From contig JAUCBJ010006665.1 in NCBI GenBank assembly GCA_032718475.1, positions 28,953 to 92,952 on the forward strand: a DNA stretch of 64,000 nt, written 5' to 3'. This DNA comes from Nemertoderma westbladi. Lineage: Eukaryota > Animalia > Xenacoelomorpha. The position numbers and the translations under genes are program-made. The notes beneath the pieces are model-generated. The model worked only from the letters and a program-made list of their open reading frames with translations, searched no databases and was not told where the DNA came from. Numbering within the stretch: position 1 is the first letter of the stretch; each line of letters starts with the position of its first letter. Below are positions 2,151 to 57,594 of this stretch, one piece after another.

Positions 2151-3573
2151 TAATTTAGCTTGCTTTATATATTAAACGCGTTTACGTGTGTCACACAGGG
2201 ATGCGAGTCAGGAAATGTAAGAAATTTCCTAGATATTTTTCGGGAAATTTCCTATCTCACTAATTTATTATATAAAGTTTACTTTTAATAGTTAATATTT
2301 ACAGAAATATCATATGATTAATTGTATAAAATAGTAATAATAAGATTTTAACTAAAATTGTTATTGTTGTTATTATTGTTATTGTGACTTTGTTTTTTGT
2401 CAATTTCATTATTAAGTATGTTTTATATTGAACGCAATTAATACATTTTAAAAATTAACTTCACAATGTAATACCTCCTGCTATTTTGCCAGTTTATTCA
2501 TATTGAAACCCTAGAAAGTAAACCCTAGACTGAACCCTAGAAACGTAAGTGATTCCTGCTTAGTGGTGTTTAGGTGGTTCGTTGTCTTGGTTCTTGGGTC
2601 GTAACTACGGGGGAAATATACTCTTCTGGAAAATTCATTGAAAAAATATATTTCCGGAAAACTCACACCCAGTCTCCAATCAACAATGAACCAGTCGCAC
2701 TGCCGCTAATCTTAGTATTTAAATGTCTTGTTACCGATGGAAACAGTTTCATTTGTTCAACTTAGTTAAATAAAGCCGGTTAAAATGTGAATTACTTAAT
2801 AGTTTATTAAACTGGATTAGCACAATAAATAAATAGTAAAACTATACAGAAACGCTACATAGGTTTAGTACAACCAATATAGGAACAAACTAATAGTAAT
2901 ATGGATAATAAATAACAACACAACGGATTCTGTAGAGAAAATAAGAGCTGTCCGGGAATTAAAGTGGTTTCACTCGAAAATAAATGTAATATTAATAATA
3001 ATGACAATTATAACTGGCGGTTATTAACTTGTATCACTGAATGGTAGCGAACTGTGTAGGAGGTGTTGCAATGAATACTAGCGTCGAGTGCCTGAAATGT
3101 ATGGTTCACTGAAAATATATTATTTAATGCAATTCAGTTTGAATACGATGGCGTTTTTAGTTACAAAATCTCAAAAATTGTGGAGATTTGTTATTTTACA
3201 AAAACAAATTTCGTGCTCAATGTGAATAGCATTTCCATGGAAACCCCAATATGTAAACTCCATTTATTCAATCTTACTCCATATGGAAACACCATTGAAT
3301 AACCTCCGAAAAACTAAGCTAAAAGCTGAAAAAATTATGCTACTCCTGTAAAACAGAGTAAATCTAAAACTCGGCAAGTTAAAAACGATTTATGTGGGGA
3401 AATATTCAATCTATAAACTGGATCAAAGTTGGAAAAGTGCTAAACATTGATTAGTGTTTATTTATTCTTTATTTCCATGGCGACGTCAAGATGACTAATA
3501 CCGTGTGATAGAGTAACCAAGGTGATCAGAGTCTACGCAGATTGCAACCCATTTATCGGTTGTTATGGGAGAT

Positions 3574-3690
3574 TCAACCAGCGCAAGTTGGTCCCAACTC
3601 GATACGATATTGGTGCATATTGGAAATCCCGTGGAAATGTACGAACGCCGCCACAACAACCAGTACATGAAAGAACTGGTGACTCTGAAA
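3574..3690 (-). CDS. ADIPOR: Adiponectin receptor (PAQR family), last coding exon (8)
   Basis: Acceptor ttttag at 3691-3696. Translates FQSHQFFHVLVVVAAFVHFHGISNMHQYRIELGPTCAG*, with the PAQR HxxxH zinc motif. TGA at 3574-3576; AATAAA on minus near 3458-3467. Confidence 0.95.
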   Translation of the reverse strand, partial: FQSHQFFHVLVVVAAFVHFHGISNMHQYRIELGPTCAG

Positions 3691-3824
3691 CTAAAACATA
3701 GAAAATATGATATAATAAAAGTAAAAATAGAATAAAACAATATCTAAACTGATTTACTCATGTTGATATGTCCGCATTAATGATACAGCTACTCTAAGTA
3801 AGAATTAAAATAAAATAATAAAAT

Positions 3825-4887
3825 GGATCTAGGACACTTCCCCCCCGGACACTCCCCCCCCCCCCCCCCGGACACTTCCCCCCCGGACACTTCCCCCCCG
3901 GACACTTCCCCCCCAGTTAAAGTGTTAAAATTAATCTGGGTGCATCAAAGCAATAAACAAAAGTTAAAGATGGTTACAGGACAAGTTGTATCTAGACAAG
4001 TTTTTTCAAAATTATAAAAAAAACATTTTTATAGTCAAATTTTGTTTGCTTTTCTTTTAATTAAGGGCTGCCGCCCCCAAACCCCGCTTATTTTCTTGGG
4101 GGCTGCCGCCCCCAAACCCCCGCTTATTTTCTTGGGGGCTGCCGCCCCCAAACCCCCGCTTATTTTCTTGGGGGTTATCGCCCCCAGACACCGGCATTTC
4201 CCTGAGTGCCCGTGGTGAAAGACTTAAGACCATTTTGAAATAATTAATTCATGTTTGTATCATCAGATAATAAATTGACTAAGCCTAAAGTAGGAGCTGT
4301 ATTGAATGTTAACCAATTTAATATATAAATTACTACAATATTATATAATTCAACAAAATCCTATTAAAAGTATTGCAAGTAACCAGGAAATTTAATATGT
4401 AGTGTGTATAATATCTATATAGTATGTATAGTAGTAATATGTATATCAATATGTAACTTTGCTGAACACAGAATACAGGTCGACGCATGTCGATTTTACC
4501 CTGGAGAGGTATAATTTTGATTGCAACAATAATATTCATCCTCATCTGCTACAATTTGAAGAAGACTATTACATAATAATACCTATAATTAAAACAATTA
4601 ATTATTATAATTCTATAGTTAATAAAAACAGTATATCATTCCGGGGATGGAATTTATAGGTCATCTAATATAATTAATTGTTTAAAGATTAGCAATTAGC
4701 ATCGGGATGCAAAAGATTACTTTCTGAGCTACGAAAGGAAAATTGGATACAACTTATCTGGATACAAGCGGTCCGTTTACCTTACAAAATGAAAAATACG
4801 AATGTGCGAAGTTAAGAACAGTCGGGGGGGGGGGGGGGGGGGGGGTGTCTGGGAGGGAAGTGTCCGGGGGGGAAGTGTCCGAACACC
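3825..4887. mobile_element. MITE with GG termini, subterminal ggacacttccccccc repeats and 8-bp TSD, in the last AdipoR intron
   Basis: Inverted ggacacttccccc/ggggaagtgtcc arrays. AATAAAAT at 3817-3824 and 4888-4895. Internal ~36-bp tandem repeat (x3) at 4065-4185. Confidence 0.85.
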
Positions 4888-4944
4888 AATAAAATTCTAA
4901 AATTTTTAAAACTAGTAAAACAATTACTTCCCACATTAACTCAC

Positions 4945-5138
4945 CATCAGGTCGCATTTCCCGGGAAAGAATCTCTCAGGTATTCGAACAGCGTAGATTA
5001 CAGCGCCCCCGATATATAGCAAGGCCATTAGTAGAAGCCAACCCATTGCGCCAACTGTGACGGCCTTGTAGAACCCATCGGTGATAATATAGTGAATACC
5101 GGGGATAACGCCAGATAGACCCAGAGCAATGAATGTTC
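4945..5138 (-). CDS. ADIPOR: Adiponectin receptor exon 7
   Basis: (G)TFIALGLSGVIPGIHYIITDGFYKAVTVGAMGWLLLMALLYIGGAVIYAVRIPERFFPGKCDLM, containing the AdipoR RIPERFFPGK motif. Donor gtgagt at 4939-4944, acceptor ag at 5139-5140; phases fit both neighbours. Confidence 0.95.
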
Positions 5139-6876
5139 CTAAATGTAAGATAACTACAGATAGACCCAGAGCAATGAATGTTCCTAAATGTAAGATAACT
5201 ACAGATAGACCCAGAGCAATGAATGTTCCTATAATGTAAGATAACTAACTACAGATAGACCCAGAGCAATGAATGTTCCTAAATGTAAGATAACTACAGA
5301 TAGACCCAGAGCAATGAATGTTCCTATAATGTAAGATAACTACAGATAGACCCAGAGCAATGAATGTTCCTATATTGTAAGATAACTACAGATAGACCCA
5401 GAGCAATGAATGTTCCTATAATGTAAGATAACTACAGATAGACCCAGAGCAATGAATGTTCCTATAATGTAAGATAACTACAGATAGACCCAGAGCAATG
5501 AATGTTCCTAAATGTAAGATAACTACAGATAGACCCAGAGCAATGAATGTTCCTATAATGTAAGATAACTAACTACAGATAGACCCAGAGCAATGAATGT
5601 TCCTAAATGTAAGATAACTACAGATAGACCCAGAGCAATGAATGTTCCTATAATGTAAGATAACTACAGATAGACCCAGAGCAATGAATGTTCCTAAATG
5701 TAAGATAACTACAGATAGACCCAGAGCAATGGATGTTCCTATAATGTAAGATAACTACAGATAGACCCAGAGCAATGAATGTTCCTAAATGTAAGATAAC
5801 TACAGATAGACCCAGAGCAATGAATGTTCCTATAATGTAAGATAACTACAGATAGACCCAGAGCAATGAATGTTCCTATAATGTAAGATAACTAACTACA
5901 GATAGACCCAGAGCAATGAATGTTCCTAAATGTAAGATAACTACAGATAGACCCAGAGCAATGAATGTTCCTATAATGTAAGATAACTACAGATAGACCC
6001 AGAGCAATGAATGTTCCTATAATGTAAGATAACTACAGATAGACCCAGAGCAATGAATGTTCCTATATTGTAAGATAACTACAGATAGACCCAGAGCAAT
6101 GAATGTTCCTAAATGTAAGATAACTACAGATAGACCCAGAGCAATGAATGTTCCTATAATGTAAGATAACTACAGATAGACCCAGAGCAATGAATGTTCC
6201 TATAATGTAAGATAACTACAGATAGACCCAGAGCAATGAATGTTCCTATATTGTAAGATAACTACAGATAGACCCAGAGCAATGAATGTTCCTATAATGT
6301 AAGATAACTACAGATAGACCCAGAGCAATGAATGTTCCTATAATGTAAGATAACTACAGATAGACCCAGAGCAATGAATGTTCCTAAATGTAAGATAACT
6401 ACAGATAGACCCAGAGCAATGAATGTTCCTATAATGTAAGATAACTACAGATAGACCCAGAGCAATGAATGTTCCTATAATGTAAGATAACTACAGATAG
6501 ACCCAGAGCAATGAATGTTCCTATAATGTAAGATAACTACAGATAGACCCAGAGCAATGAATGTTCCTAAATGTAAGATAACTACAGATAGACCCAGAGC
6601 AATGGATGTTCCTAAATGTAAGATAACTACAGATAGACCCAGAGCAATGAATGTTCCTATAATGTAAGATAACTACAGATAGACCCAGAGCAATGAATGT
6701 TCCTATAATGTAAGATAACTACAGATAGACCCAGAGGAATGAATGTTCCTATAATGTAAGATAACTACAGATAGACCCAGAGTAATGAATGTTCCTATAA
6801 TGTAAGATAACTACAGATAGACCCAGAGCAATGAATGTTCCTATAATGTAAGATAACTACAGATAGACCCAGAGCA
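5113..6876 (-). repeat. 45/46/50-bp tandem array (~38 copies) made of the AdipoR exon 7 acceptor plus exon start
   Basis: Minus-strand unit gtagttatcttacat(t/ta)tag+GAACATTCATTGCTCTGGGTCTATCT. The terminal copy is the real exon start (5113-5138). Confidence 0.97.
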
Positions 6877-6882
6877 AAAGCA

Positions 6883-7020
6883 GGGCGAGCCACGAAGTTG
6901 GCGGAGCTTTAGCGTACTGATACTGTTAGGGGTGAGTCAATTATGGCAAATAGTTGCTGTCGTCGATGTTACCATTTTGCCACGCTAATAACTTCGTCGG
7001 ATTTAAATTTTTTCTACTAT
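6883..7020 (+). mobile_element. 5' fragment of a Helentron/HINE-like non-autonomous element
   Basis: gggcgagccacgaagttggcggagc...tgttagggg...gcaaatagttg..gtcgtcg is near-identical to the reverse complement of about 22890-22968. Confidence 0.6.
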
Positions 7021-7074
7021 TATTATTAATTGACAACAAGCATACGTATATGTTATTGTTGAATTGTACATTAA

Positions 7075-7310
7075 CTATAATCTAGCTAGCAATCGCTCCA
7101 TTACGGCAAATGCTTTACTCAGATACAAAGCAGCTACGTTTTTAAATCAGGTTAATAATGCCTTAAATTTATATAGCGATGGGTTTATAGTATAATACCG
7201 CCCTAAATAAGTTTGCCTTATATTTGAGTAAGCAGGACACACAAGCAGAAAGTCTTCTACTTCCCTTAAGTTATAAATTTTACACACCCGATCCCATACA
7301 GCTCTGTGCA
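7075..7310 (-). mobile_element. Degenerate LINE ORF2 C-terminal (CCHC) fragment
   Basis: DRVCKIYNLREVEDFLLVCPAYSNIRQTYLGRYY..PSLYKFKALL resembles the RxCxxC..VEDExHFLxxCPxYxxxR end of non-LTR retrotransposon ORF2. Confidence 0.7.
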
Positions 7311-10300
7311 CCAAGTGAGAGTCGCGTGAGTACCGACTTGTAAACCAATTGAGTGCCGACTTGTAAACCAAGTGAGTGCCGACTTGTAAACCACGTGAGT
7401 GCGGACTTCTAAATCAAGTGAGTGCCGACTTGTGAACCAAGTGAGTGCCGCCGACTTGTGAACCAAGTGATTGCCGACTTGTAAACCACGTGAGTGCCGA
7501 CTTGTAAATCAAGTGAGTGCCGACTGGTGAACCAAGTGAGTGCCTACTTCTGAACCAACTGATTGCCGAATTGTAAACCACGTGAGTGCCGACTTCTAAA
7601 TCAAGTGAGTGCCGACTTGTAAACCAAGTGAATGCCGACTTGTAATCCACGTGAGTGTGAACTTCTAAATCAAGTGAGTGCCGACTTGTAAACAAAGTGA
7701 GTGCCGCCGACTTGTGAACCAAGTGATTGCCGACTTGTAAACAACTTGAGTGCCGACTTATAAATCAAGTGAGTGCCGACTTGTGAACCATGTGATTGCC
7801 GACTTGTAGACCACGTCGTGAGTGCCGACTTCTAAATCAAGCAAGTGCCGACTTGTAAACCAAGTGAGTTCCGACTTGTAATCCACGTGAGTGCGGACTT
7901 CTAAATCAAGTGAGTGCCGACTTGTGAACCAAGTGAGTGCCGCCGACTTGTGAACCAAGTGATTGCCGACTTGTAAACCACGTGAGTGCCGACTTGTAAA
8001 TCAAGTGAGTGCCGACTGGTGAACCAAGTGAGTGCCTACTTCTGAACCAACTGATTGCCGAATTGTAAACCACGTGAGTGCCGACTTCTAAATCAAGTGA
8101 GTGCCGACTTGTAAACCAAGTGAATGCCGACTTGTAATCCACGTGAGTGTGAACTTCTAAATCAAGTGAGTGCCGACTTGTAAACAAAGTGAGTGCCGCC
8201 GACTTGTGAACCAAGTGATTGCCGACTTGTAAACAACTTGAGTGCCGACTTATAAATCAAGTGAGTGCCGACTTGTGAACCATGTGATTGCCGACTTGTA
8301 GACCACGTCGTGAGTGCCGACTTCTAAATCAAGCAAGTGCCGACTTGTAAACCAAGTGAGTTCCGACTTGTAATCCACGTGAGTGCGGACTTCTAAATCA
8401 AGTGAGTGCCGACTTGTGAACCAAGTGAGTGCCGCCGACTTGTGAACCAAGTGATTGCCGACTTGTAAACCACGTGAGTGCCGACTTGTAAATCAAGTGA
8501 GTACCGACTGGTGAACCAAGTGAGTGCCTACTTCTGAACCAACTGATTGCCGAATTGTAAACCACGTGAGTGCCGACTTCTAAATCAAGTGAGTGCCGAC
8601 TTGTAAACCAAGTGAATGCCGACTTGTAATCCACGTGAGTGTGAACTTCTAAATCAAGTGAGTGCCGACTTGTAAACAAAGTGAGTGCCGCCGACTTGTG
8701 AACCAAGTGATTGCCGACTTGTAAACAACTTGAGTGCCGACTTATAAATCAAGTGAGTGCCGACTTGTGAACCATGTGATTGCCGACTTGTAGACCACGT
8801 CGTGAGTGCCGACTTCTAAATCAAGCAAGTGCCGACTTGTAAACCAAGTGAGTTCCGACTTGTAATCCACGTGAGTGTGGACTTCTAAATCAAGTGAGTG
8901 CCGACTTGTAAACCACGTGGGTGTGGACTTCCAAATCAAGTGAGTGCCGACTTGTAAACCAAGTGAGTGCCGACTTGTAAATAAAGTGAGTGCCAACTTG
9001 TAAACCAAGTTAGTGCCGACTTTTAAATCGAGTGAGTGCCGACTTGTGAACCAAGTGAGTTCCGATTTATGAACCAAGTGAGTGCCGACTTGTGAACCAA
9101 GTGAGTGCCGATTTGTAAACCACGTGAGTGCCGACTTCTAGATCAAGTGAGTGCCGACTTGTAAACCACGTGAGTGTGGACTTCTAAATCAAGTGAGTGC
9201 CGACTTGTAAACCGCGTGAGTGCCGACTTCTAAATCAAGTGAGTGCCGACTTGTAAACCACGCGAGTGTGGATTTCTAAATCAAGTGAGTGCCAACTTGT
9301 AAACCGAGTGAGTGCCGACTTCTAAATCAAGTGAGTGCCGACTTGTAAACCACGTGAGTGTGGACTTCTAAATCAAGTGAGTGCCGACTTGTAAACCACG
9401 TGAGTGTGGACTTCTAAATCAAGTGAGTGCCGACTTGTAAACCACGCGAGTGTGGACTTCTAAATCAAGTGAGTGCCAACTTGTAAACCGAGTGAGTGCC
9501 GACTTGTAAATAAAGTGAGTGCCGACTTGTAAACCAAGTTAGTGCCGACTTTTAAATCGAGTGAGAGCCGACTTGTGAACCAAGTGATTGCCGACTTGTA
9601 AACCACGTGAGTACCGACTTCTAAACCACGTGAGTGTGGACTTCGAAATCAAGTGAGTGCCGACTTGTAAACCACGCGAGTGTGGACTTCTAAATCAAGC
9701 GAGTGCCAACTTGTAAACCAAGTGAGTGCCGACTTTTAAATCAAGTAAGTGCCGACTTCTAAATCAAGTGAGTGCCGACTTGTAAACCAAGTGAGTACCG
9801 ACTTGTAAACCAAGTGAGTGCCGACTTGTAAACGAAGTGAGTGCCGACTTGTGAACCAAGTGAGTGCCGACTTGTAAACCACGTGAGTGTGGACTTCTAA
9901 ATCAAGTGAATGCCGACTTGTAATCCGCGTGAGTGTGGACTTCTAAATCAAGTGAGTGCCGACTTGTAAACGACGCGAGTGTGGACTTCTAAATAAAATG
10001 AGTGCCAACTTGTAAACCGAGTGAGTGCCGACTTCTAAATCAAGTGAGTGTCGACTTCAACATCAAGTGAGTGCCGACTTTGAGTGCCGACTTGTAAACC
10101 AAGTGAATGCCGACTTGTAATCCACGTGAGTGTGAACTTCTAAATCAAGTGAGTGCCGACTTGTAAACAAAGTGAGTGCCGCCGACTTGTGAACCAAGTG
10201 ATTGCCGACTTGTAAACAACTTGAGTGCCGACTTATAAATCAAGTGAGTGCCGACTTGTGAACCATGTGATTGCCGACTTGTAGACCACGTCGTGAGTGC

Positions 10301-13300
10301 CGACTTCTAAATCAAGCAAGTGCCGACTTGTAAACCAAGTGAGTTCCGACTTGTAATCCACGTGAGTGCGGACTTCTAAATCAAGTGAGTGCCGACTTGT
10401 GAACCAAGTGAGTGCCGCCGACTTGTGAACCAAGTGATTGCCGACTTGTAAACCACGTGAGTGCCGACTTGTAAATCAAGTGAGTGCCGACTGGTGAACC
10501 AAGTGAGTGCCTACTTCTGAACCAACTGATTGCCGAATTGTAAACCACGTGAGTGCCGACTTCTAAATCAAGTGAGTGCCGACTTGTAAACCAAGTGAAT
10601 GCCGACTTGTAATCCACGTGAGTGTGAACTTCTAAATCAAGTGAGTGCCGACTTGTAAACAAAGTGAGTGCCGCCGACTTGTGAACCAAGTGATTGCCGA
10701 CTTGTAAACAACTTGAGTGCCGACTTATAAATCAAGTGAGTGCCGACTTGTGAACCATGTGATTGCCGACTTGTAGACCACGTCGTGAGTGCCGACTTCT
10801 AAATCAAGCAAGTGCCGACTTGTAAACCAAGTGAGTTCCGACTTGTAATCCACGTGAGTGCGGACTTCTAAATCAAGTGAGTGCCGACTTGTGAACCAAG
10901 TGAGTGCCGCCGACTTGTGAACCAAGTGATTGCCGACTTGTAAACCACGTGAGTGCCGACTTGTAAATCAAGTGAGTACCGACTGGTGAACCAAGTGAGT
11001 GCCTACTTCTGAACCAACTGATTGCCGAATTGTAAACCACGTGAGTGCCGACTTCTAAATCAAGTGAGTGCCGACTTGTAAACCAAGTGAATGCCGACTT
11101 GTAATCCACGTGAGTGTGAACTTCTAAATCAAGTGAGTGCCGACTTGTAAACAAAGTGAGTGCCGCCGACTTGTGAACCAAGTGATTGCCGACTTGTAAA
11201 CAACTTGAGTGCCGACTTATAAATCAAGTGAGTGCCGACTTGTGAACCATGTGATTGCCGACTTGTAGACCACGTCGTGAGTGCCGACTTCTAAATCAAG
11301 CAAGTGCCGACTTGTAAACCAAGTGAGTTCCGACTTGTAATCCACGTGAGTGTGGACTTCTAAATCAAGTGAGTGCCGACTTGTAAACCACGTGGGTGTG
11401 GACTTCCAAATCAAGTGAGTGCCGACTTGTAAACCAAGTGAGTGCCGACTTGTAAATAAAGTGAGTGCCAACTTGTAAACCAAGTTAGTGCCGACTTTTA
11501 AATCGAGTGAGTGCCGACTTGTGAACCAAGTGAGTTCCGATTTATGAACCAAGTGAGTGCCGACTTGTGAACCAAGTGAGTGCCGATTTGTAAACCACGT
11601 GAGTGCCGACTTCTAGATCAAGTGAGTGCCGACTTGTAAACCACGTGAGTGTGGACTTCTAAATCAAGTGAGTGCCGACTTGTAAACCGCGTGAGTGCCG
11701 ACTTCTAAATCAAGTGAGTGCCGACTTGTAAACCACGCGAGTGTGGATTTCTAAATCAAGTGAGTGCCAACTTGTAAACCGAGTGAGTGCCGACTTCTAA
11801 ATCAAGTGAGTGCCGACTTGTAAACCACGTGAGTGTGGACTTCTAAATCAAGTGAGTGCCGACTTGTAAACCACGTGAGTGTGGACTTCTAAATCAAGTG
11901 AGTGCCGACTTGTAAACCACGCGAGTGTGGACTTCTAAATCAAGTGAGTGCCAACTTGTAAACCGAGTGAGTGCCGACTTGTAAATAAAGTGAGTGCCGA
12001 CTTGTAAACCAAGTTAGTGCCGACTTTTAAATCGAGTGAGAGCCGACTTGTGAACCAAGTGATTGCCGACTTGTAAACCACGTGAGTACCGACTTCTAAA
12101 CCACGTGAGTGTGGACTTCGAAATCAAGTGAGTGCCGACTTGTAAACCACGCGAGTGTGGACTTCTAAATCAAGCGAGTGCCAACTTGTAAACCAAGTGA
12201 GTGCCGACTTTTAAATCAAGTAAGTGCCGACTTCTAAATCAAGTGAGTGCCGACTTGTAAACCAAGTGAGTACCGACTTGTAAACCAAGTGAGTGCCGAC
12301 TTGTAAACGAAGTGAGTGCCGACTTGTGAACCAAGTGAGTGCCGACTTGTAAACCACGTGAGTGTGGACTTCTAAATCAAGTGAATGCCGACTTGTAATC
12401 CGCGTGAGTGTGGACTTCTAAATCAAGTGAGTGCCGACTTGTAAACGACGCGAGTGTGGACTTCTAAATAAAATGAGTGCCAACTTGTAAACCGAGTGAG
12501 TGCCGACTTCTAAATCAAGTGAGTGTCGACTTCAACATCAAGTGAGTGCCGACTTTGAGTGCCGACTTGTAAATCAAGTGAGTGCCGACTTCCAAATCTA
12601 GTGAGTGCCGACTTGTAAATCAAGTGAGTGCCGACTTCCAAATCTAGTGAGTGCCGACTTGTAAACCAAGTGAGTACCGACTTGTAAACGAAGTGAGTGC
12701 CGACTTGTAAACGAAGTCCGACTTGTGAACCAAGTGAGTGCCGACTTGTAAACGAAGTGAGTGCCGACTTGTGAACCAAGTGAATGCCGACTTGTAAACC
12801 ACGTAAGTACCGAATTCTAAATCAAGTGAGTGCCGTATTGTAAACCAAGTGAGTGCCGACTTGTAAATCAAGTGAGTGCCGACTTCCAAATCAAGTGAGT
12901 GCCGACTTGTAACCCAAGTGAGTACCGACTTGTAAACGAAGTGAGTGCCGACTTGTAAACGAAGTGAGTGCCGACTTGTGAACCAAGTGAGTGCCGACTT
13001 GTAAACGAAGTGAGTGCCGACTTGTGAACCAAGTGATTGCCGACTTGTAAACCACGTGAGTACCGAATTCTAAATCAAGTGAGTGCCGTATTGTAAACCA
13101 AGTGAGTGCCGACTTGTAAACGAAGTGAGTGCCGACTTGTGAACCAAGTGAGTGCCGACTTGTGAGCGAAGTGAGTGCCGACTTGTGAACCAAGTGATTG
13201 CCAACTTGTAAACCACGTGAGTGCCGACTTGTAAACGAAGTGAGTGCCGACTTGTGAACCAAGTGAGTGCCGACTTGTAAGCGAAGTGAGTGCCGACTTG

Positions 13301-16300
13301 TGAACCAAGTGATTGCCAACTTGTAAACCACGTGAGTGCCGACTTGTAAACGAAGTGAGTGCCGACTTGTGAACCAAGTGAGTGCCGACTTGTAAACGAA
13401 GTGAGTGGCGACTTGTGAACCAAGTGAGTGCCGACTTGTAAGCGAAGTGAGTGCCGACTTGTGAACCAAGTGATTGCCGACTTGTAAGCGAAGTGAGTGC
13501 AGACTTGTGAACCAAGTGATTGCCAACTTGTAAACCACGTGAGTGCCGACTTGTAAGCGAAGTGAGTGTCGACTTGTGAACCAAGTGATTGCCGACTTGT
13601 AAACCACGTGAGTGCCGACTTGTAAGCGAAGTGAGTGCCGACTTGTGAACCAAGTGATTGCCAACTTGTAAACCACGTGAGTGCCGACTTGTAAACGAAG
13701 TGAGTGCCGACTTGTGAACCAAGTGAGTGCCGACTTGTAAGCGATGTGAGTGCCGACTTGTGAACCAAGTGATTGCCGACTTGTAAGCGAAGTGAGTGCG
13801 ACTTGTGAACCAAGTGATTGCCAACTTGTAAACCACGTGAGTGCCGACTTGTAAGCGAAGTGAGTGCCGACTTGTGAACCAAGTGAGTGCCGACCTGAAA
13901 GCGATGTGAGTGCCGACTTGTGAACCAAGTGATTGTCGACTTGTAAGCGAAGTGAGTGCGACTTGTGAACCAAGTGATTGCTAACTTGTAAACCACGTGA
14001 GTGCCGACTTGTAAGCGAAGTGAGTGCCGACTTGTGAACCAAGTGATTGCCAACTTGTAAACTACGTGAGTGCCGACTTCTAAATCAATTGAGTGCCAAC
14101 TTGTAAACCAAGTGAGTACCGACTTGTAAACCAAGTGAGTGCCGAATTGTAAACGAAGTGAGTGCCGACTTGTGAACCAAGTGAGTGCCGACTTGTAAGC
14201 GAAGTGAGTGCCGACTTGTGAACCAAGTGAGTGCCGACTTATAAGCGAAGTGAGTGCCGACTTGTGAATCAAGTGAGTGCCGACTTGTAAGCGAAGTGAG
14301 TGCCGACTTGTGAACCAAGTAATTGCCAACTTGTAAACCACGTGAGTGCCGACTTCTAAATTAAGTGACTGCCGGGTTGTGAACCAAGTGAGTGCCGACT
14401 TGTAAGCGAAGTGAGTGCCGACTTGTGAACCAAGTGATTGCCAACTTGTAAACCACGTGAGTGCCGACTTCTAAATTAAGTGAGTGCCGGGTTATGAACC
14501 AAGTGAGTGCCGACTTGTAAGCGAAGTGAGTGGCGACTTGTGAATCAAGTGAGTGCCGACTTGTAAGCGAAGTGAGTACCGACTTGTGAACCAAGTGATT
14601 GCCAACTTGTAAACCACGTGGGTGCCGACTTCTAAATTAAGTGAGTGCCGGGTTGTGAACCAAGTGAGTGCCGACTTGTAAGCGAAGTGAGTGCCGACTT
14701 GTGAACCAAGTGATTGCCAACTTGTAAACCACGTGAGTGCCGACTTCTAAATTAAGTGAGTGCCGGGTTGTGAACCAAGTGAGTGCCGACTTGTAAACGA
14801 AGTGAGTGCCGACTTGTGAACCAAGTGATTGCCGACTTGTAAACCAGGTGAGTGCCGACTTGTAAACGAAGTGAGTGCCGACTTGTGAACCAAGTGAGTG
14901 CCGACTTGTAAGCGATGTGAGTGCCGACTTGTGAACCAAGTGATTGCCGACTTGTAAGCGAAGTGAGTGCGACTTGTGAACCAAGTGATTGCCAACTTGT
15001 AAACCACGTGAGTGCCGACTTGTAAGCGAAGTGAGTGCCGACTTGTGAACCAAGTGAGTGCCGACCTGAAAGCGATGTGAGTGCCGACTTGTGAACCAAG
15101 TGATTGCCGACTTGTAAGCGAAGTGAGTGCGACTTGTGAACCAAGTGATTGCCAACTTGTAAACCACGTGAGTGCCGACTTGTAAGCGAAGTGAGTGCCG
15201 ACTTGTGAACCAAGTGATTGCCAACTTGTAAACTACGTGAGTGCCGACTTCTAAATCAATTGAGTGCCAACTTGTAAACCAAGTGAGTACCGACTTGTAA
15301 ACCAAGTGAGTGCCGAATTGTAAACGAAGTGAGTGCCGACTTGTGAACCAAGTGAGTGCCGACTTGTAAGCGAAGTGAGTGCCGACTTGTGAACCAAGTG
15401 AGTGCCGACTTGTAAGCGAAGTGAGTGCCGACTTGTGAATCAAGTTAGTGCCGACTTGTAAGCGAAGTGAGTGCCGACTTGTGAACCAAGTAATTGCCAA
15501 CTTGTAAACCACGTGAGTGCCGACTTCTAAATTAAGTGACTGCCGGGTTGTGAACCAAGTGAGTGCCGACTTGTAAGCGAAGTGAGTGCCGACTTGTGAA
15601 CCAAGTGATTGCCAACTTGTAAACCACGTGAGTGCCGACTTCTAAATTAAGTGAGTGCCGGGTTATGAACCAAGTGAGTGCCGACTTGTAAGCGAAGTGA
15701 GTGCCGACTTGTGAATCAAGTGAGTGCCGACTTGTAAGCGAAGTGAGTGTCGACTTGTGAACCAAGTGATTGCCAACTTGTAAATCACGTGAGTGCCGAC
15801 TTCTAAATTAAGTGAGTGCCGGGTTGTGAACCAAGTGAGTGCCGACTTGTAAGCGAAGTGAGTGCCGACTTGTGAACCAAGTGATTGCCAACTTGTAATC
15901 CACGTGAGTGCCGACTTCTAAATTAAGTGAGTGCCGGGTTGTGAACCAAGTGAGTGCCGACTTGTAAACGAAGTGAGTGCCAACTTGTGAATCAAGTGAG
16001 TCCCGACTTGTAAGCGAAGTGAGTGCCGACTTGTGAACCAAGTGATTGCCAACTTGTAAACCAGGTGAGTGCCGACTTGTAAACGAAGTGAGTGCCGACT
16101 TGTGAACCAAGTGAGTGCCGACTTGTAAGCGATGTGAGTGCCGACTTGTGAACCAAGTGATTGCCGACTTGTAAGCGAAGTGAGTGCGACTTGTGAACCA
16201 AGTGATTGCCAACTTGTAAACCACGTGAGTGCCGACTTGTAAGCGAAGTGAGTGCCGACTTGTGAACCAAGTGAGTGCCGACCTGAAAGCGATGTGAGTG

Positions 16301-17384
16301 CCGACTTGTGAACCAAGTGATTGCCGACTTGTAAGCGAAGTGAGTGCGACTTGTGAACCAAGTGATTGCCAACTTGTAAACCACGTGAGTGCCGACTTGT
16401 AAGCGAAGTGAGTGCCGACTTGTGAACCAAGTGATTGCCAACTTGTAAACTACGTGAGTGCCGACTTCTAAATCAATTGAGTGCCAACTTGTAAACCAAG
16501 TGAGTACCGACTTGTAAACCAAGTGAGTGCCGAATTGTAAACGAAGTGAGTGCCGACTTGTGAACCAAGTGAGTGCCGACTTGTAAGCGAAGTGAGTGCC
16601 GACTTGTGAACCAAGTGAGTGCCGACTTGTAAGCGAAGTGAGTGCCGACTTGTGAATCAAGTTAGTGCCGACTTGTAAGCGAAGTGAGTGCCGACTTGTG
16701 AACCAAGTAATTGCCAACTTGTAAACCACGTGAGTGCCGACTTCTAAATTAAGTGACTGCCGGGTTGTGAACCAAGTGAGTGCCGACTTGTAAGCGAAGT
16801 GAGTGCCGACTTGTGAACCAAGTGATTGCCAACTTGTAAACCACGTGAGTGCCGACTTCTAAATTAAGTGAGTGCCGGGTTATGAACCAAGTGAGTGCCG
16901 ACTTGTAAGCGAAGTGAGTGCCGACTTGTGAATCAAGTGAGTGCCGACTTGTAAGCGAAGTGAGTGCCGACTTGTGAACCAAGTGATTGCCAACTTGTAA
17001 ATCACGTGAGTGCCGACTTCTAAATTAAGTGAGTGCCGGGTTGTGAACCAAGTGAGTGCCGACTTGTAAGCGAAGTGAGTGCCGACTTGTGAACCAAGTG
17101 ATTGCCAACTTGTAATCCACGTGAGTGCCGACTTCTAAATTAAGTGAGTGCCGGGTTGTGAACCAAGTGAGTGCCGACTTGTAAACGAAGTGAGTGCCAA
17201 CTTGTGAATCAAGTGAGTCCCGACTTGTAAGCGAAGTGAGTGCCGACTTGTGAACCAAGTGATTGCCAACTTGTAAACTACGTGAGTGCCGACTTCTAAA
17301 TTAAGTGAGTGCCGGGTTGTGAACCAAGTGAGTGCCGACTTGTAAACGAAGTGAGTGCCAACTTGTAAACCAAGTGAGTGCCGA
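7309..17384. repeat. 23-bp satellite, ~10 kb (~440 monomers), with higher-order repeats
   Basis: Monomer gtgagtgccgacttgtaaaccaa and variants. Identical ORFs recur at 492-bp and 2475-bp spacing, near-identical ones at 1171/1217 bp. Ends about 32 bp from the exon 6 donor. Confidence 0.98.
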
Positions 17385-17416: not shown

Positions 17417-17604
17417 CAGCTCGTACAGGCCGGAATCTTGGAGACGCGAAACGCTCCATCATAGAGACAGTGACTGCACATGAGCCGAGGATGAAGATGA
17501 GCACGAGATAGGCGGTACGAGCCGCCTTGGCGCAGTAGAACCCGTAATAGAGCCAGGGTATAAACGAACCAACAATAAGCACTGCAATGCCCGTGTAATC
17601 CAAT
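17417..17604 (-). CDS. ADIPOR: Adiponectin receptor exon 6
   Basis: LDYTGIAVLIVGSFIPWLYYGFYC...FRPVRA. Acceptor ttacag at 17605-17610, donor gtaag at 17412-17416. Confidence 0.95.
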
Positions 17605-17815: not shown

Positions 17816-17996
17816 TTGCAGAAGAGTTTGGAGACCTGCCGACTGTGACAGTAAACTGTGTGGAACAGCCAACTAAAACCCAGACAGATGATGGCAGATA
17901 TAAAGAAAGCAATGAACACGACACTGTCCTGCCATTTAAACGTGTCCGGAGCACCAAATATAAAGTAAATCGTTGTGCAGATCATAAAGAGAAAAC
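17816..17996 (-). CDS. ADIPOR: Adiponectin receptor exon 5
   Basis: FLFMICTTIYFIFGAPDTFKWQDSVVFIAFFISAIICLGFSWLFHTVYCHSRQVSKLFCK (SxxxH motif). Bounded by ag and gtaagt. Not in the ORF track. Confidence 0.95.
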
Positions 17997-18555: not shown

Positions 18556-18889
18556 CGAGAAGATGAGTCCAAATGTTACCGGTTTCCGTATGTAACCGGA
18601 ATATCGAGCCGAAACACTTCCGGAATGACGGCATCGGAGGCCGGTGATGGTGCCATAGATAGTCGTTATCTCTCAGCCAATCAGGAAGCGCGTCGAACGC
18701 AATCAGCCGCCATTCCTTGGCCTTCTCCGTGGCTTTGTGACACGCCTCCCTCGCCCTATCCTGTGCATGCGTACAGACGTCCCTCGCTTTGTCTTTACTG
18801 CGGGAGATCATATCTCTTGCTAAACCCAACGGTGTGTGTTCTCCCTCGATAACCGAAACAGACGGGGACCCATTGAATAGTTGACAACT
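18556..18889 (-). CDS. ADIPOR: Adiponectin receptor exon 4
   Basis: SCQLFNG...LPDWLRDNDYLWHHHRPPMPSFRKCFGSIFRLHTETGNIWTHLLG. Strong poly-T acceptor at 18890-18902, donor gtaag at 18551-18555. Confidence 0.93.
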
Positions 18890-19211: not shown

Positions 19212-19346
19212 TTCAGTATAACGACAGAAGCAGTGACCGCACCGGCAGTCTACCGGTAGTAATGGAGACAGTTCGTCGTACAATATAAACTCGTCGTGCT
19301 CGTCGCCCTCACAGGAGCAACTGCAGTCGCAGTACTCACTGCTGTC
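19212..19346 (-). CDS. ADIPOR: Probable AdipoR N-terminal exon 3, Cys/acidic-rich cassette (or alternative first exon from ATG at 19355)
   Basis: 135 nt, phase 0-0, DSSEYCDCSCSCEGDEHDEFILYDELSPLLPVDCRCGHCFCRYTE. Perfect donor gtaagt, weak acceptor, in-frame ATG 9 nt upstream. Confidence 0.6.
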
Positions 19347-19649
19347 CTGGTCCATACCCACCCGTGCAAAAAGGGGAAACACAGAGGAAACACCGAAGTA
19401 TTAGCGCAAATGCGCTAATACTTGCTGTCTATTGGCCCATCCGATGGTACGATATAACTTGGCACACGTAGTGAAAACGATAGGGTGGGGTGGGGGGGTT
19501 ACTATACGCGGTTGGAGTTACACACTTAGATTGAATGGGAATATCTGGCATACAACTGAACATCATTCATACTGTAAACATCGCTAGTAAATCGTACTAC
19601 TGCTACTACCACACTGTCGGCAATAGACTTAGCATTATATTATATCACA

Positions 19650-21979: not shown

Positions 21980-22970
21980 AACATACTACAATGCTCCTAC
22001 AGACACGAAGTGGGGCCTTCGCGCAGCACGTGAAATGAGTTAATGCTAAGTATCAACTCGAAAGGATTATAAAAACATAGGAGAAGATTTTCCCGGAAAA
22101 CGTTAACCCTCTAGCGGGAGACTGGGTAACTGAAGAAGGAAGGATTAGTTTCCCTACAAAGCCACAGCCTATGGTCTATTACATATCTACCAAGTTTCCG
22201 ATTGACGGATCATAAATAACGAAATGTTGGAAGGTTTTCACTTTCATACATTTAGCCCTCTAGCGGCATATTAAAGAACTATGGATCGATCACCTTCCTC
22301 ACAAAGACGAGGCATGTGGTCTAGTACATACCGGTACTGTATATTCCAAAATTCAGCTTAAATAGATTAAGATCAAGGAATTTGCGAAGGTTATCACTTT
22401 CCTACATTTCGCCCTCTAGCGGCAGACTCGAAAACTCCGGACCGATTACTGTCCACACAAAGACTTAGGATGTCTTCTAGTACATATATGACAAGTTTCA
22501 GCGTAATCAGATCATAAACAACTAAATGGAAGAATAATTTCACATTCGGGACATTTCGCCCTCTAGCGGCAGACTGGAGAACTGCAGACAGATTAGCCTC
22601 CTTTGAAATTTACAGCTAATGGTCTAGTACATACTTCCCAAGTTTCAGCTTAAACGGATTAAAAGCAAAGAAATGGGTGGCCATTTAATGTTTAGACATG
22701 TGGCCCTCTAGCGGGAGACCATTGCACTGATGGTGTCTGAAAGTCTCTCAAAAATCTCAACTTTTGCTCATATTGATACCTACAAATTTTCAACTTGGCA
22801 GCTTTAAATCCGACAAAGTTATTAGCATGTCAAAATCGTAACGACGACGACAACGACGACGACGACGACGACAACGACGACGACGACGACGACAACTATT
22901 TGCATAAATTGACCCACCCCCTAACAGTGTCAATTCGCTAAGGCTCCGCCAACTTCGTGGCTCGCCCCAC
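21980..22970 (-). mobile_element. Helentron/HINE-like element with (GAC)n microsatellite and ~150-bp central tandem repeats
   Basis: Family terminus tgtggggcgagccacgaag on minus at about 22952-22971. (GAC)n at 22841-22895. Five repeats marked by ccctctagcgg at 22107, 22256, 22412, 22559 and 22704. Left boundary approximate. Confidence 0.65.
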
Positions 22971-24136: not shown

Positions 24137-27071
24137 TGTGGGGCGAGCCACGAAAGTAAGCGAGCTTAGCATACAGGTACCACTAACTCAATCGGTGTGT
24201 CTGTTGTTCTGTGGGACGAGCCACGAAAGTAAGCGAGCTTAGCATACGGGTACCATTAACTCAATCGGTATGTCTGTCGTTCTGTTGTGTTCAATTTTAA
24301 ACGTTAATAACTCAGCCAAATCTTAATGAAATCCAGTAAGCAACCGAGGGTGAACTCTCTATAGCCGAGGGGCACTTGTATAATAACTAATAATCACGAA
24401 CCCCCTCCTCTTATAATATATAACTCTGTAGTAGTCAGTAGTAGTAGTAGTAATAGTAGTAGTAGTAGTAGTATAAGTAGTAAGTAATAGTATAGGAGAT
24501 CGGTTTAAACCAAAGTGATAAAGTAACATTATTATATAACATAATCATATAGACAAAGTAGAATAAGATACAGATTCATAATTATTTTATCAAACTCATG
24601 TTCTACTTACTTCAATGTGCCAATTGTAATAATAATTAAACATATTATTCCGATTAATCTGCGTTTGGCCCTATAAGATATTATACTGAAGTGTTTTATA
24701 TCAATATATCCATGCGAGTAAACAAGAAGTGAAGTAAATGTTTATTATTATAGTTTTAGAAATTGAATGATATACCCAAGATAGTGAAATAGATAATATA
24801 CAAGAAATTGCCATTTGATCAGATATATCAAAGCGGCGTCTTTAGTATAATACCGTAATAGTATCAATTAACTCTGTTATACAATGTAAATATACTAAAT
24901 CTATTTATAAATATATTATGAGCCCTACATTGTATATTTCTCCTACAGGTAGACAATGTAGATGTTAAAACTTGATATAATTTGGTATAATGTATAACAT
25001 ATTACAAATAAGACTGAGGCAGCTAAACTATATTGCAAAGAAATCAAATATCCTAAAGTAATATACTAGACCCTCCCTCCACCCTATAAATAGTGTTCAC
25101 CACCTACCCCACCCACCGCCCTTATTACTTCATAACAATGAAAGATAGTACTGGCGCTCCGGTCACTCCGTTCCCTCCGCTGGGGGGGTTAAGTTGTAGG
25201 TTTTGACACTATGCAAAATACGAGCACAGAGTTAGAAGCGCATTGGATAGGCGAACATTTCTTGCAGTGAAAGTATTTCCATACCTATTATAGTTTTCGA
25301 GATAGTTAGACATGAGTAGCTAAAATTTGAATATTTTTCGGTAAAGTCTGATTTCACCGGTACCTGTCATCCGAAATATGGATTGTGATATATCGTTAAA
25401 TGCGGGTCCACTATCTGTACATTCAAATATTTTCAAGGAAAAAAATCGATCAAGGGTTTTCGAAATATTTTCGAATTACCGGAAGCAGACTTTGGGCGAC
25501 CATATCTCCGGTACCGGTAGGCCTATTGAGTCGAAATTATTTTTAATCTACTTAGAACACTCCAGTGAATGTTTTTTAGTTTGAAAGTTTTGCCCCAAAA
25601 TGCTCAGAAGTAATTTCGAAAAAAATGATCATTTCGCGATCATGATCTTTTGACCCCCTAGAATTGAACTTTTTAATGGTTAAATTTTGGCTACCCCCCC
25701 TAATTCGAGGGTGAGGAATCTTTTTGTAATGTTAAGTTTTTTCATACGGTGAACTCACAGGACTTGGTCTTCGAAATAAAACCGAAAACATGATCTTTCG
25801 TGATCATGGCCTGATCAAATCGCTTTTTGAAAATTTCGAAATGCTTAAAAGTTGCCCCTTCTTAATAGAAGTCGATTAGTAAAAAAAAAATCGGGGGTCT
25901 CAAACAAAGTTTTCGAGAAAATCGGGAAAAACCGAAAAACACGATCTTTTATGATCAGGTATCAGATCTCGAGAACCGGTTGTCCGATCGAGCCAATTTT
26001 TTTTTAATCAACTCAGAATTGACCATTGAACATTTCTTACAATGAATGTTTATTAGAAAAATGCTTAGATTCGATTTTAAATATACTGATCTTTTCGCGA
26101 TCATGATCTTGAGTTTTGACCCTCTAGACTAGAACTTTTTTTGCCCAAATTTTGGCTACCCCCCATAATTCGAGGGTGAGGAATCTTTTTGTGATGTTAA
26201 GTTTTTCCATACGGTGAACTCCCAGGACTTGGTCTTCGAAATAAAACCGAAAACACGATCTTTCCTGATCATGGCCTGATCAAATCGCTTTTTGAAAATT
26301 TCGAAATGCTCAAAAGTTGCCACTTCATCATAGAAGTCGATTCGTAAAAAAAAAATCGGGGGTCTCAAACAAAGTTTTCGAGAAAATTGGAAAAAACCGA
26401 AAAACACGATCTTTAATGATCAGGTATCAGATCTCAAGAACCGGTTGTCCGATCGAGCCAATTTTTTTTTAATCGACTCAGGGCGTTGTTCCGAACGATT
26501 CCTACAGTAATTGTTTATATCCAAAATGCTTAGTTACGATTTTACGAAGTCCGATCTTTGCGCGATCATGATCTTGCGTTTTGACCGGGAAGAATTCACT
26601 TTTTTAAAATCTTTTAACGGGAATCATGACTAATGTGGGGTCGCTGAATCTTTTTGTAATGTTAAGTTTTTCGATTGGAGCAAGCCTTGAGTGTCCGATT
26701 GCTGATCAAAACTGATCTTTGCTGATCATGGTCAAGATCATGATCTGATCGCTCCAAAAAAAAGGTTGTGAAGGTAAACCCATATGCTGCCTACAGTTTG
26801 GCGCCGGTCCCAAGTCCGTAGCATTAGCGGTTCTGGACTTATCTCCATAGCAACGTGGTTGCTAGGGAAGCGGACTTTTTGACTCAAATTGGCCCTAGCC
26901 GGAGAACCGTAGACTTTTTTAACACATTATGTATGGCGAAAAGTCTTCTGGATAAATTTTGGGGGGGGGGGGGGGGTCTAGGAACATCCTATTGTTCGTT
27001 TTCGCTTAGTTGCTGAGATCCTCTCGTCCCACAAATCCCAGGATTCTATAAAGGCATTCTGCTGGACTAGT
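24137..27071 (+). mobile_element. ~2.9-kb Helentron/HINE-like element with ~480-bp internal tandem repeats
   Basis: Starts tgtggggcgag (head duplicated at 24210), with the inverted partner ctcgtcccaca at about 27023-27033, followed by a weak hairpin and CTAGT. (AGT)n at 24430-24490. Repeats of ~465-480 bp over 25500-26700. Confidence 0.65.
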
Positions 27072-38899: not shown

Positions 38900-39358
38900 C
38901 ACAGTACAGCAGAATACAGGAATAGGCTGATAGGTCTGTAGGTGCGGGTGCGAGGGCCCTGGAGCTGAAACCGCCTCTTCTCATCTTGTACACTGGTACA
39001 TTCTGACATTTGAGAATTGACATAGGCCTAGTTAAGTTTTATATCATTTGTTCTTCGTTCCACTCGCGAATTTTTCCATACACGTACACGAGGTACGGCC
39101 ACGGCAGCACGAGCTGACGAGTCTAACGGTACGGCAGTACGCGGTACAGGTCTAGTTCGCTCGGTTTGTTGTTCGTCGGTGTGAGGTGTGACCTGGTGAC
39201 TGTGACTGAGAGACAAACTCACAGACTGCAGTCTCAGCGCTGCAAGTGAGTCGGACCTCGGTTTTGCGGTTGGTGCTGGTGGTTGGTATAAAGTGTAAAG
39301 CTGTAAAGACAGAAAGATAAACAGATAACTGGATAATCTAGCTGTCTAGGCCTATATC
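38900..39358. promoter_or_regulatory. CpG-enriched region upstream of RBM42, candidate bidirectional promoter for RBM42 and AdipoR
   Basis: Local CpG enrichment at 39060-39270 against an AT-rich background, divergent gene orientation, and a minus-strand donor-like gtgagt at about 39216-39221. Confidence 0.4.
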
Positions 39359-40840
39359 ATGTCGAACTTAATCGATGAAATGAGTCGGTTTGAAGACGAG
39401 ATTTACGGAGACAGCGATGCCATTAAAACTGAACCTCCCATAGGGAGCGACGCCTCGCATCGGGATAATTCCGGTCCGCAGTCCGACAGTCTGAACCGTG
39501 TTATCGGCCCCTTCGCCCCTCCACCCCCTCCGCCCCCTGCCGCCCCCTCCAACCCGCCCATGTTTGTGCCGCACCAACTGCGCCCCAGGGGACACATTCC
39601 CCCGCCCCCTCCGAGGGGGAACTTCTCCGCCCGGCTCAATAGACCCGCCCACCCAGGTGGTCCCCCGCAGTTTTACCCCAGGGATTCTCCGGGTTTTCAT
39701 CCCCCTTTCCGCCCCCCCGGGCCACCTTCATACCCCGACCGCTACCACCAGCCCCCCAGACTACTGCGCCCCCCTGGCCCACCCCCTGACAGACTGTCCT
39801 ACTCCCAGATGCTCAGCTCCAAGCCGGCGGCCACACCCGGAGTCTTTAAAGCCCATAGAGAAGGTCCCGTCATCGAAAGTAAACCGCTAACTTACTCCTC
39901 GAAGAAATCCCAACCAGTTTCTGTAGCAACGGAAAGTCGACCGACACTAAAAACCGATCAACAAAAAGCTTTTAGGATAAAAGAAGATAAACAGGTAAAA
40001 GAAGATGCTGTTTCGGATTCATTAAAAGATTTCTACGATGAGTTAGAGAAATCAGAAGAGAAAGTTCGTAAGAAAAAGAAAAAGGGTAAAAAGAAAGACG
40101 AATCTATTGTCGATGTAGTTATGGACGATTCTACTGTGACAAAGGAAACACAGCCAGTTGGTTCTACAGATCAGTCTGGGTCTGGTACTAACCCATCTGT
40201 GTCGACCAGTAACCCGTCAGCATCAGCTTCTTCCTCTTACAACCAACCAGTAAACATAATCACCAACCAGCCGTTGTTCCCCCCTAACTTCCCCTTCCCC
40301 CCGGCTCCCTCGTTCCCTCTTCCTTACGCCGCCCCCTCCACGACCGCTCCCGTTGCCTTCCACCCCCACTCGGCCGCCATTCTCGCCCACATGGCGGCCT
40401 ACGGTATTTCGGCCCCCCAACCCGCCCCCGCCAACGACCCGCCTACCAAGGGGGCCAAGAAGAAAAAACTAATGAAGCGAACAGCCGGAGGCCAGGTCTG
40501 GGAGGACATGTCCCTCACGGAATGGGACGTCAACGACTTCCGTATCTTCTGTGGGGACCTCGGTAATGACGTTTCCGATGATACCCTCGCTAAAGCCTTC
40601 AACTGCTACCCCTCCTTCCTCAAGGCCAAGGTCGTCCGGGATAAAAAGTCTCACAAGTCAAAAGGTTTCGGCTTCGTTTCGTTTAAAGACCCAAACGATT
40701 TCGTAAAGGCAATGCGAGAGAAGAATGGTATTTACGTGGGAACTCGGCCGTTGAAGTTGCGGCGCTCCACCTGGAAGGAACGAAACTTGGACGTATCGAA
40801 AAGAAAAGAAAGAGATAAGAAACGGTTGGGTCTCAAGTAA
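39359..40840 (+). CDS. RBM42: RNA-binding protein 42 (tri-snRNP-associated RRM protein), intronless CDS
   Basis: 493-aa ORF with a Pro-rich N-terminus and RTAGGQVWED...DFRIFCGDLGNDVSDDTLAKAF...KSKGFGFVSF...YVGTRPLKLRRSTWKERN...KRLGLK, which matches the RBM42 C-terminal RRM. Confidence 0.95.
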   Translation: MSNLIDEMSRFEDEIYGDSDAIKTEPPIGSDASHRDNSGPQSDSLNRVIGPFAPPPPPPPAAPSNPPMFVPHQLRPRGHIPPPPPRGNFSARLNRPAHPGGPPQFYPRDSPGFHPPFRPPGPPSYPDRYHQPPRLLRPPGPPPDRLSYSQMLSSKPAATPGVFKAHREGPVIESKPLTYSSKKSQPVSVATESRPTLKTDQQKAFRIKEDKQVKEDAVSDSLKDFYDELEKSEEKVRKKKKKGKKKDESIVDVVMDDSTVTKETQPVGSTDQSGSGTNPSVSTSNPSASASSSYNQPVNIITNQPLFPPNFPFPPAPSFPLPYAAPSTTAPVAFHPHSAAILAHMAAYGISAPQPAPANDPPTKGAKKKKLMKRTAGGQVWEDMSLTEWDVNDFRIFCGDLGNDVSDDTLAKAFNCYPSFLKAKVVRDKKSHKSKGFGFVSFKDPNDFVKAMREKNGIYVGTRPLKLRRSTWKERNLDVSKRKERDKKRLGLK

Positions 40841-45137: not shown

Positions 45138-45719
45138 TTAAGGTCAGGGAGGAAATCCGTGGTCGTTGCTATGCGGTTATTGATTGTTTATATCAGTTGC
45201 TAGGATATACCATAGGATAATCAATAATTTTACGAGATCCTACTCCTTTATAAGAGACATGTCATATTTTTTCGGTTATACTTAGTACTACATGTACACA
45301 ATCTGCAGTTTTTTTTCCACTGAACCTTGTATTTCAGTACTGTATACTGTATAGTAAATGTTTTGTGTGATGTTATCAATTTTCCTTCCGATTAATGCCC
45401 AACCAAACTGGCATCTTTGATTTTATGACATTATTGCTATTAAAAAAAGTCTTCAGGAATGGTTTATATCTTGCATCCACTAACTGTCCTATATTTTGGC
45501 AGAAAATTGACCACTGAAAATGAACGAATTGTCCATTATTCTATATTTTCTATTGCAGACAAATTCATAATGTAAATGCGACATAATCTTATGTGGCGTC
45601 AGTACAGTAGCTCATTTGGAGAAAGTTTTGAGCTTTTAAATAATTATTTTTACAGTTTACTTATTTTATATTTAAGTATTTATCAAATTACCTCAACTAC
45701 TTTACTATTTATAAATCCG

Positions 45720-47199: not shown

Positions 47200-47449
47200 C
47201 TTTCTACTGGAGAGCCTTGCACGGTGTTGTAAAGGTGTTGCTATGGCGACAGCTCGGTCCATGGCCAATAAGACAACGATCCAACTGCTGGACATGCGAG
47301 ACCACTCCTTCCAGACTGGGACCACGAAACAGTCCATCGTGACCAACGCCCGACTAGTCTGGTATTCTCGAGCCCAAGTGTAAACAGCATTTTGGTAGAA
47401 AAAGTACATCAACACTAGAGCGTCCGCCACCGCAAGGTTAATGATGCAC
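47200..47449 (-). CDS. Class A GPCR exon 3, TM2-TM3
   Basis: CIINLAVADAL...DC...SSSWIVVLLAMDRAVAIATPL...SRK (LAxAD and DRY-like motifs). Bounded by ag and gttgag; phase 2 in, phase 0 out. Confidence 0.9.
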
Positions 47450-57528: not shown

Positions 57529-57594
57529 CCCCCTTTCGAGCTCGGGTTAGCCGTCTGACGCAGTGCTGAGCTAAAATTCGTTCTTACTCAGATG

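Follow-up and report, generated by a model that had tools for sequence, protein, structure and literature searches.

Minisatellites whose unit spans an intron-exon boundary have been described in lancelets (amphioxus) under the name of 'mirages'. These arrays occur in Adh3, in the globins BflGb6 and BflGb9, in troponin C (TnC) and in PGBD5, and the accessible text of both reports describes the mRNA as normally spliced (PMC3087553, PMC3902484). The PGBD5 case is added by the second report, the accessible part of which also cites the Adh and TnC mirages as making no aberrant mRNA (PMC3902484), while Ebner et al., in the part of their paper at hand, propose a gain of introns from mirage repeats (PMC3087553). 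In human CBS, c.844_845ins68 duplicates 52 intron and 16 exon nucleotides, and the distal acceptor is reported to be strongly favoured with a normal mRNA (PMC7490669, PMC2630376, PMC1802585, accessible portions). Intron 7 of human F7 carries a 37-bp VNTR with 5-9 identical donors, of which the authentic one alone is described as used (accessible text of PMC1557585). The choice of the last copy is not automatic, since in older experiments with duplicated gamma-globin sites, as summarised in the same text, the proximal copy was used (PMC1557585). An association of repeat length with splicing has also been described for many loci in humans (PMC10078293, accessible text). As described there, these repeats act via protein binding or branch-point spacing and not, unlike the array considered here, by way of repeated acceptors. 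The VNTR of ABCA7 is reportedly a case of repeat length affecting splicing.

The array analysed here lies in an AdipoR gene of Nemertoderma westbladi, within a window (the whole stretch of DNA under analysis) of 64,000 nucleotides. It is a mirage of the kind already described in lancelets, as its unit spans the intron-exon boundary of the host gene and is repeated head-to-tail at 38 junctions. Tandem copies of the boundary, homogenised units and a normal mRNA are shared with the amphioxus mirages as far as the accessible reports describe them; the acceptor-side layout (3' end of the intron plus 5' part of the exon) is that of BflGb6, and the unit falls within the 10-72 bp range given for the Adh3 mirage. 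The globin and PGBD5 mirages, in contrast, are described with 3-7 copies against 38 here, and the AdipoR array differs from the amphioxus examples available for comparison in having lost its far boundary against an interspersed repeat and in belonging to a different invertebrate host. CBS 844ins68, in the portions consulted, is similar in the duplication of an intron end with an exon start and in the choice of the downstream acceptor copy, but has two copies instead of 38 and keeps its ancestral upstream intron; furthermore, G runs between its sites are reported to promote the distal choice, whereas each AdipoR unit has one GGG. F7 intron 7 is similar in that the terminal minisatellite unit is the real splice site and identical pseudo-sites are described as silent; its repeat, however, is on the donor side, has 5-9 copies and has been tested in minigenes, while the AdipoR array is on the acceptor side, has 38 copies and is known from sequence and contigs. 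No literature on this AdipoR array was found in a search that covered neither most subscription journals nor supplements.

The host gene was modelled as six exons on the minus strand, with an open 385-aa frame running through the acceptor at 5138. Its exons, and the repeats of the intron that carries the array, are as follows in the order of transcription, X3 being the sequencing run that holds a spliced contig and X1, X2 and X4 the DNA runs.

19212..19355, minus strand: probable first coding exon, 144 nt, placed from the open 385-aa model.
18556..18889, minus strand: AdipoR exon, 334 nt, aligning to homologues within the model.
17816..17996, minus strand: AdipoR exon, 181 nt (Pfam HlyIII, E 6.1e-10).
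17417..17604, minus strand: upstream AdipoR exon, 188 nt, with donor GTAAGA at 17416 joined to 5138 (Pfam HlyIII, E 1.1e-15; the X3 loose end behind 5139 is the end of this exon).
7326..17384, unstranded: unrelated 23-bp satellite, about 434 copies, which occupies the greater part of this AdipoR intron (tandem-repeat scan; no other match in the window).
7030..7310, unstranded: diverged fragment of a multi-copy repeat (depth 270-2,300, many fixed differences).
6883..7007, plus strand: interspersed repeat of very high copy number, ending sharply at 6883 and lacking its first few terminal bases (depth, flanks, copies in the window).
6878..6882, unstranded: 5-nt filler between array end and interspersed repeat, resembling the adjacent array end (sequence comparison).
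5139..6877, minus strand: minisatellite, its intronic portion, with 37 full units and a partial far-end unit (TRF, unit splitting, 46-nt loop contig in X1, X2 and X4).
5139..5228, minus strand: last two 45-nt units, with the four nearest alternative AGs in frame and stop-free (translation of outcomes).
4945..5138, minus strand: true AdipoR exon of 194 nt, the fifth of six coding exons, whose acceptor is the last array copy and whose donor is GTGAGT at 4944 (AdipoR2 structure 5LWY, E 8.6e-27; Pfam HlyIII, E 2.7e-15; X3 contig).
3574..3690, minus strand: last coding exon, to the stop codon (Pfam HlyIII, E 0.0085; the X3 loose end before 4945 is the start of this exon).

Four of the five exons scanned match PF03006 (HlyIII), three of them above the curated cut-off, and GTRAG is found at the donors of all five introns, the shortest of which has 211 nt. 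The model is 49-62% identical to animal AdipoRs and aligns without gaps to a Lamellibrachia homologue over residues 108-380; for the array exon itself, the best identity among 120 listed homologues is 76%. In a tree of 39 rows (the model and 38 of the 120 listed homologues, picked as named or top full-length matches), it stands on a long branch without resolved placement. The exon had been labelled coding exon 7, which follows human numbering; in the present gene model it is the fifth of six. Two observations concern the 3' end of the gene. A second AG lies 6 nt downstream of the last exon's acceptor (3684-3690, minus strand) and its use would drop two conserved residues, and the X3 contig uses the upstream AG. 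The last intron contains inverted repeats of a 15-nt unit (3832-3916 and 4821-4881), which enclose about 1 kb with a 36-bp minisatellite, so that 3832-4881 looks like a non-autonomous DNA transposon.

TRF places the array at 5104-6877, with a period of 46, 38.6 copies and 96% matches. When the minus strand was split at each acceptor, 38 acceptor/exon-start junctions were obtained from 6840 down to 5138, enclosing 37 full units of 46 nt (22 units), 45 nt (12) and 50 nt (3), with spacers of 20, 19 and 24 nt, respectively. Each unit consists of a 26-nt stub of the AdipoR exon start and 19-24 nt of intron end closing in TAG. The TAG is kept at 38/38 junctions, so the AG splice signals are retained in the units, and in 33 of the 37 upstream copies the stub equals the real exon start letter for letter. 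It is only the copy at 5138 that extends into the rest of the conserved exon, as evident from the AdipoR2 and HlyIII matches downstream of it. The first-pass annotation, which had described a satellite of about 38 copies of acceptor plus exon start, the make-up of its unit and the single productive continuation, is thus upheld on these points. Its count of some 37 decoy acceptors before the productive one holds for the exon-start copies, but each spacer contains a second AG, bringing the AGs of the array to 79 (38 at exon starts and 41 within spacers).

A block of three units recurs at a spacing of seven units. Such recurrence among units that are 96% alike is a pattern as in ordinary minisatellite turnover, and the matching units, exon-identical stubs and recurring multi-unit blocks together constitute concerted evolution of the array. 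The last two units are both of 45 nt (permutation p 0.10), and a 45-45 pair is found again at units 6-7.

At its far end the array starts within exon-derived sequence (17 nt), followed by the 5-nt filler and by the interspersed repeat at 6883, which agrees with the earlier description of an end in exon-derived sequence against a mobile element and adds the filler and the high copy number of that repeat. Three other copies in the window carry the few terminal bases that are missing at 6883, so that a junction left by a deletion seems likelier than a clean insertion, and the filler may likewise be compared with that of a deletion junction. The interspersed repeat reaches a summed depth of up to 147,000-183,000 in the DNA runs, with many different flanks before 6883; the element must be present in thousands of copies, since its depth of about 150,000 compares with about 20 for locus-specific contigs. 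A second long copy, 87% identical, lies at 22803-22967. The element end proper (6883-6932) recurs at 22884-22967, 24137-24285 and 43533-43548; an ACG microsatellite forms part of the copy near 22900, and the copy at 24137 is tandemly doubled. We take the element to resemble Helentron-associated elements, and one frame of the fragment at 7030..7310 presumably resembles a LINE ORF2 tail. The ancestral upstream intron had been considered gone. It is lost beside the array, but the donor at 17416 is intact at a distance of 12,278 nt, the length of the intron before the array exon. The 23-bp satellite (10,059 nt), which begins just 33 nt past that donor, and the acceptor array (1,739 nt) make up 96% of this intron.

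Eight merged tandem arrays occupy 36% of the 64-kb window. With two of them filling 96% of the AdipoR intron, arrays appear to arise readily in this DNA. When the eight were compared, only the AdipoR array matched an identified exon, the matches of three others being unchecked for exons. Another of the window's arrays is a satellite of 8.9 kb at 48228-57085 (53-bp period, 166 copies, no match elsewhere in the window), beside which stand two minus-strand frames (41673-42482 and 47191-47496) of a probable GPCR gene, so labelled by inspection. Other features of the window are a single 496-aa open frame on the plus strand at 39350-40840, with a C-terminal RRM (E 2.7e-15) and a proline-rich N-terminus, which looks intronless and which we assume to be an RBM42-type gene; a 289-aa plus-strand frame at 45576-46445 with four hydrophobic segments and a repeated tail rich in proline, glutamine and tyrosine, apparently intronless; and a GC-rich minus-strand region at 57588-61981, by inspection an LTR-retrotransposon, whose gag-, reverse-transcriptase- and integrase-like frames are split over several pieces.

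The array is real and present in the DNA of two samples. Five of the nine listed runs contain part of 3560-5200; X1 and X4 derive from one sample and X2 from a second, and a further run, X5, which yielded nothing for the exon, was left out of account. A contig of 76 nt, representing the 46-nt unit closed on itself, is found in all three DNA runs at depths of 222.9 (X1), 539.6 (X2) and 102.1 (X4), and since two samples carry it, at least one is independent of the source of the window. In X2, where a neighbouring window-identical contig has a depth of 23.4, the loop-to-flank ratio is 23.1, close to the value of 23.8 that the window gives as mean multiplicity of 31-mers. In X1 a unique contig of the exon (depth 18.2) breaks off at 5141, at the beginning of the array. 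An assembly artefact, raised earlier as a possibility, is largely refuted by these data and by the structured variants among the units. In its favour, none of the contigs listed reads through the array or across its far junction (at 6877-6883, known from the window sequence) and one DNA run may be the window's own source; we regard it as extremely improbable. Copy-number variation was sought in contig depth and dropped. Contig depth is not copy number. The ratios are 23.1 in X2, 9-12 in X1 and about 4 in X4, the last with a reference contig that is not specific to the locus; as X1 and X4 are one sample and yet differ two- to threefold, these figures give no reading of length polymorphism. Among the loose ends listed for the two samples there is no array-free intron or allele, which fits with fixation by drift or by selection.

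The authentic terminal acceptor at 5138 is used in the one transcript contig seen. This contig (2,676 nt, depth 1,274.6) covers 4945-5139 without other letters and is spliced at both ends, with junctions 17417 -> 5138 and 4945 -> 3690. It comes from a single run (X3) labelled 'DNA?', none of the listed runs being recorded as RNA; X3 is taken as an RNA library because the contig is spliced at both ends and the flanking intron is uncovered; a retrocopy is argued against by the DNA runs, which list no spliced junction. No spacer- or repeat-bearing contig is listed from X3 on either stretch, contigs being prone to drop rare forms and to hide minor or NMD-degraded isoforms. An intron of 12.3 kb, 96% of it tandem repeat, is nonetheless correctly spliced in this contig.

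The outcome of splicing at each of the other AGs was obtained by translation. A premature stop follows from 35 of the 37 upstream exon-start acceptors, in all 35 cases more than 55 nt before the last junction, and from 39 of the 41 internal AGs (38/39 stops beyond that distance). The exceptions are the four nearest AGs, which are in frame because the last two units are 45 nt long; they give stop-free exons starting at 5153 (+15 nt), 5183 (+45), 5198 (+60) and 5228 (+90), adding 5, 15, 20 and 30 aa to exons of 209-284 nt. The prediction that distal acceptors cause a frameshift and NMD would hold for the 35 as far as their premature stops go but fails for the nearest two exon-start copies (5183 and 5228). 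That all four nearest AGs are in frame could reflect selection against leaky use, a lead at p about 0.10. Upstream exon-start copies as a whole would give exons of 239 to about 1,900 nt. Two further ideas were examined and rejected: masking of decoys by RNA structure, as the last units form poorer structures than shuffled sequences do (z +1.61), 192 of the 200 shuffles being as good, and the 23-bp satellite as an additional field of decoy acceptors, in which only 2 sites passed an ad hoc filter.

The branch point must lie in repeat sequence, as had been proposed, because there is no non-repeat intron within 1.7 kb of the acceptor. Matches to YTNAY, the branch-point pattern, occur at -37 and -8, and TNA occurs at -13 and -47. 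The candidate put forward about 37 nt before the AG has this pattern match in its support, but an internal AG lies 20 nt downstream of it and is unused in the transcript contig, which fits poorly with first-AG selection. Either the branch point is nearer than -37, or first-AG selection is overridden.

These observations are most probably explained by a boundary mirage in AdipoR whose seen transcript is spliced at the last copy, the array being likely neutral and likely tolerated through exon definition, which favours the acceptor nearest the downstream donor. The array most likely grew, by unequal exchange or slippage, from a duplication of 45-46 nt across the boundary, and its far boundary may afterwards have been lost through a deletion or an insertion. 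With an upstream intron of 12.3 kb, the array exon is probably recognised across itself. The last copy would pair with the GTGAGT donor 194 nt away and has the full exon body ahead of it, while upstream copies would give exons of 239 to about 1,900 nt and have just a weak GT after them. Occasional use of the closest AGs would insert 5-30 residues without a frameshift, and use of AGs further up would give premature stops, with probable clearance by NMD. This acceptor choice by exon definition is probable from established splicing biology and from the analogues described above.

Against this reading stands, as an unlikely alternative, a copy-number-tunable rheostat, in which some transcripts are spliced at upstream copies, acquire a premature stop and undergo NMD, with array length thereby setting the AdipoR dose; the share of transcripts lost would rise with copy number, and the in-frame 45-nt units would be kept by selection as a buffer, a combination for which we see little likelihood. 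The near identity of the decoys to the real site and the nearly uniform premature stops so far before the last junction speak for it, the depth ratios of X1 and X2 might be length variation, and the human splicing-associated repeats offer, in the accessible text, a precedent for repeat length near splice sites shifting splicing, as a rheostat needs (PMC10078293). Contigs are blind to minor isoforms and to those removed by NMD, so the reading retains a small probability. On the other hand, the normal junction is the only one seen, depth is no measure of copy number when X1 (9-12) and X4 (about 4) differ within one sample and the X4 reference contig is not locus-specific, and the authentic site is the one reported, in the portions consulted, as used in published mirages, in CBS 844ins68 and in F7 IVS7. 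It is improbable, too, that the four nearest AGs serve minor in-frame isoforms, with 5, 15, 20 or 30 mostly hydrophobic residues added before a membrane segment and the last units held at 45 nt by selection. Their stop-free, in-frame state, which the commonest unit of 46 nt would not give, agrees with such a role. However, the permutation value is 0.10, an ancestral 45-nt unit would leave the last unit needing no explanation, the 45-45 pair recurs at units 6-7, none of these isoforms is seen in the transcript contig, and 15 or 30 extra residues at the start of a helix would probably upset the topology of the seven helices.

Stepwise re-splicing or an ongoing intron gain, in which the GT...AG spacers would be removed singly or several together as small introns, is very improbable. 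Every spacer does begin with GT and end with AG, mirages have been proposed as an intron source in a model (PMC3087553), and in human paralogues a link between tandem repeats and new introns has been drawn (PMC2812944), according to the accessible text of both. The tandem-duplication model of Rogers, as cited in the accessible part of PMC3087553, expects a new donor and acceptor to excise the duplicated segment and a new exon to stay in the mRNA; at this locus the transcript contig has no extra stub and the spacer GT is without GTRAG. The spacers (19-24 nt) compare with 211 nt for the shortest intron of this gene. Animal introns are usually far longer than 19-24 nt. The spacer GT is without -1 G, +4 A and +5 G, while all five real AdipoR donors are GTRAG, though a crude count of donor matches (6/11) ties it with the weakest real donor. 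It may be a by-product of the junction, since in a 27-nt match its G also equals the next exon base. A 26-nt micro-exon would, moreover, shift the frame, and these features speak against the suggestion of intron gain under way. Stepwise re-splicing fares no better. At a recursive splicing site, splicing to an acceptor AG restores a donor behind it (AG-GT), but the exon-start AGs here are followed by GA and the internal ones by TT, and the joined exon-exon sequence has no GT and hence regenerates no donor.

The AdipoR mirage, read as a probably neutral array with splicing at the last copy, is a large and clean example of a known repeat type. It provides a natural substrate for the question of how a single acceptor is selected out of 79 closely spaced AGs when the branch point lies in exon-derived repeat, and a warning for annotation, as boundary arrays can yield false micro-exons. 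In the literature examined, supplements aside, the role of a splice-acceptor dial was found demonstrated for no mirage. If decoy use did scale with copy number, the minisatellite would be a direct dial on gene dose, and length tuning would turn it into a splice-acceptor dial that is inherited and mutates fast. That mirages also occur outside lancelets is a point better made from a set of such loci than from the AdipoR locus alone.
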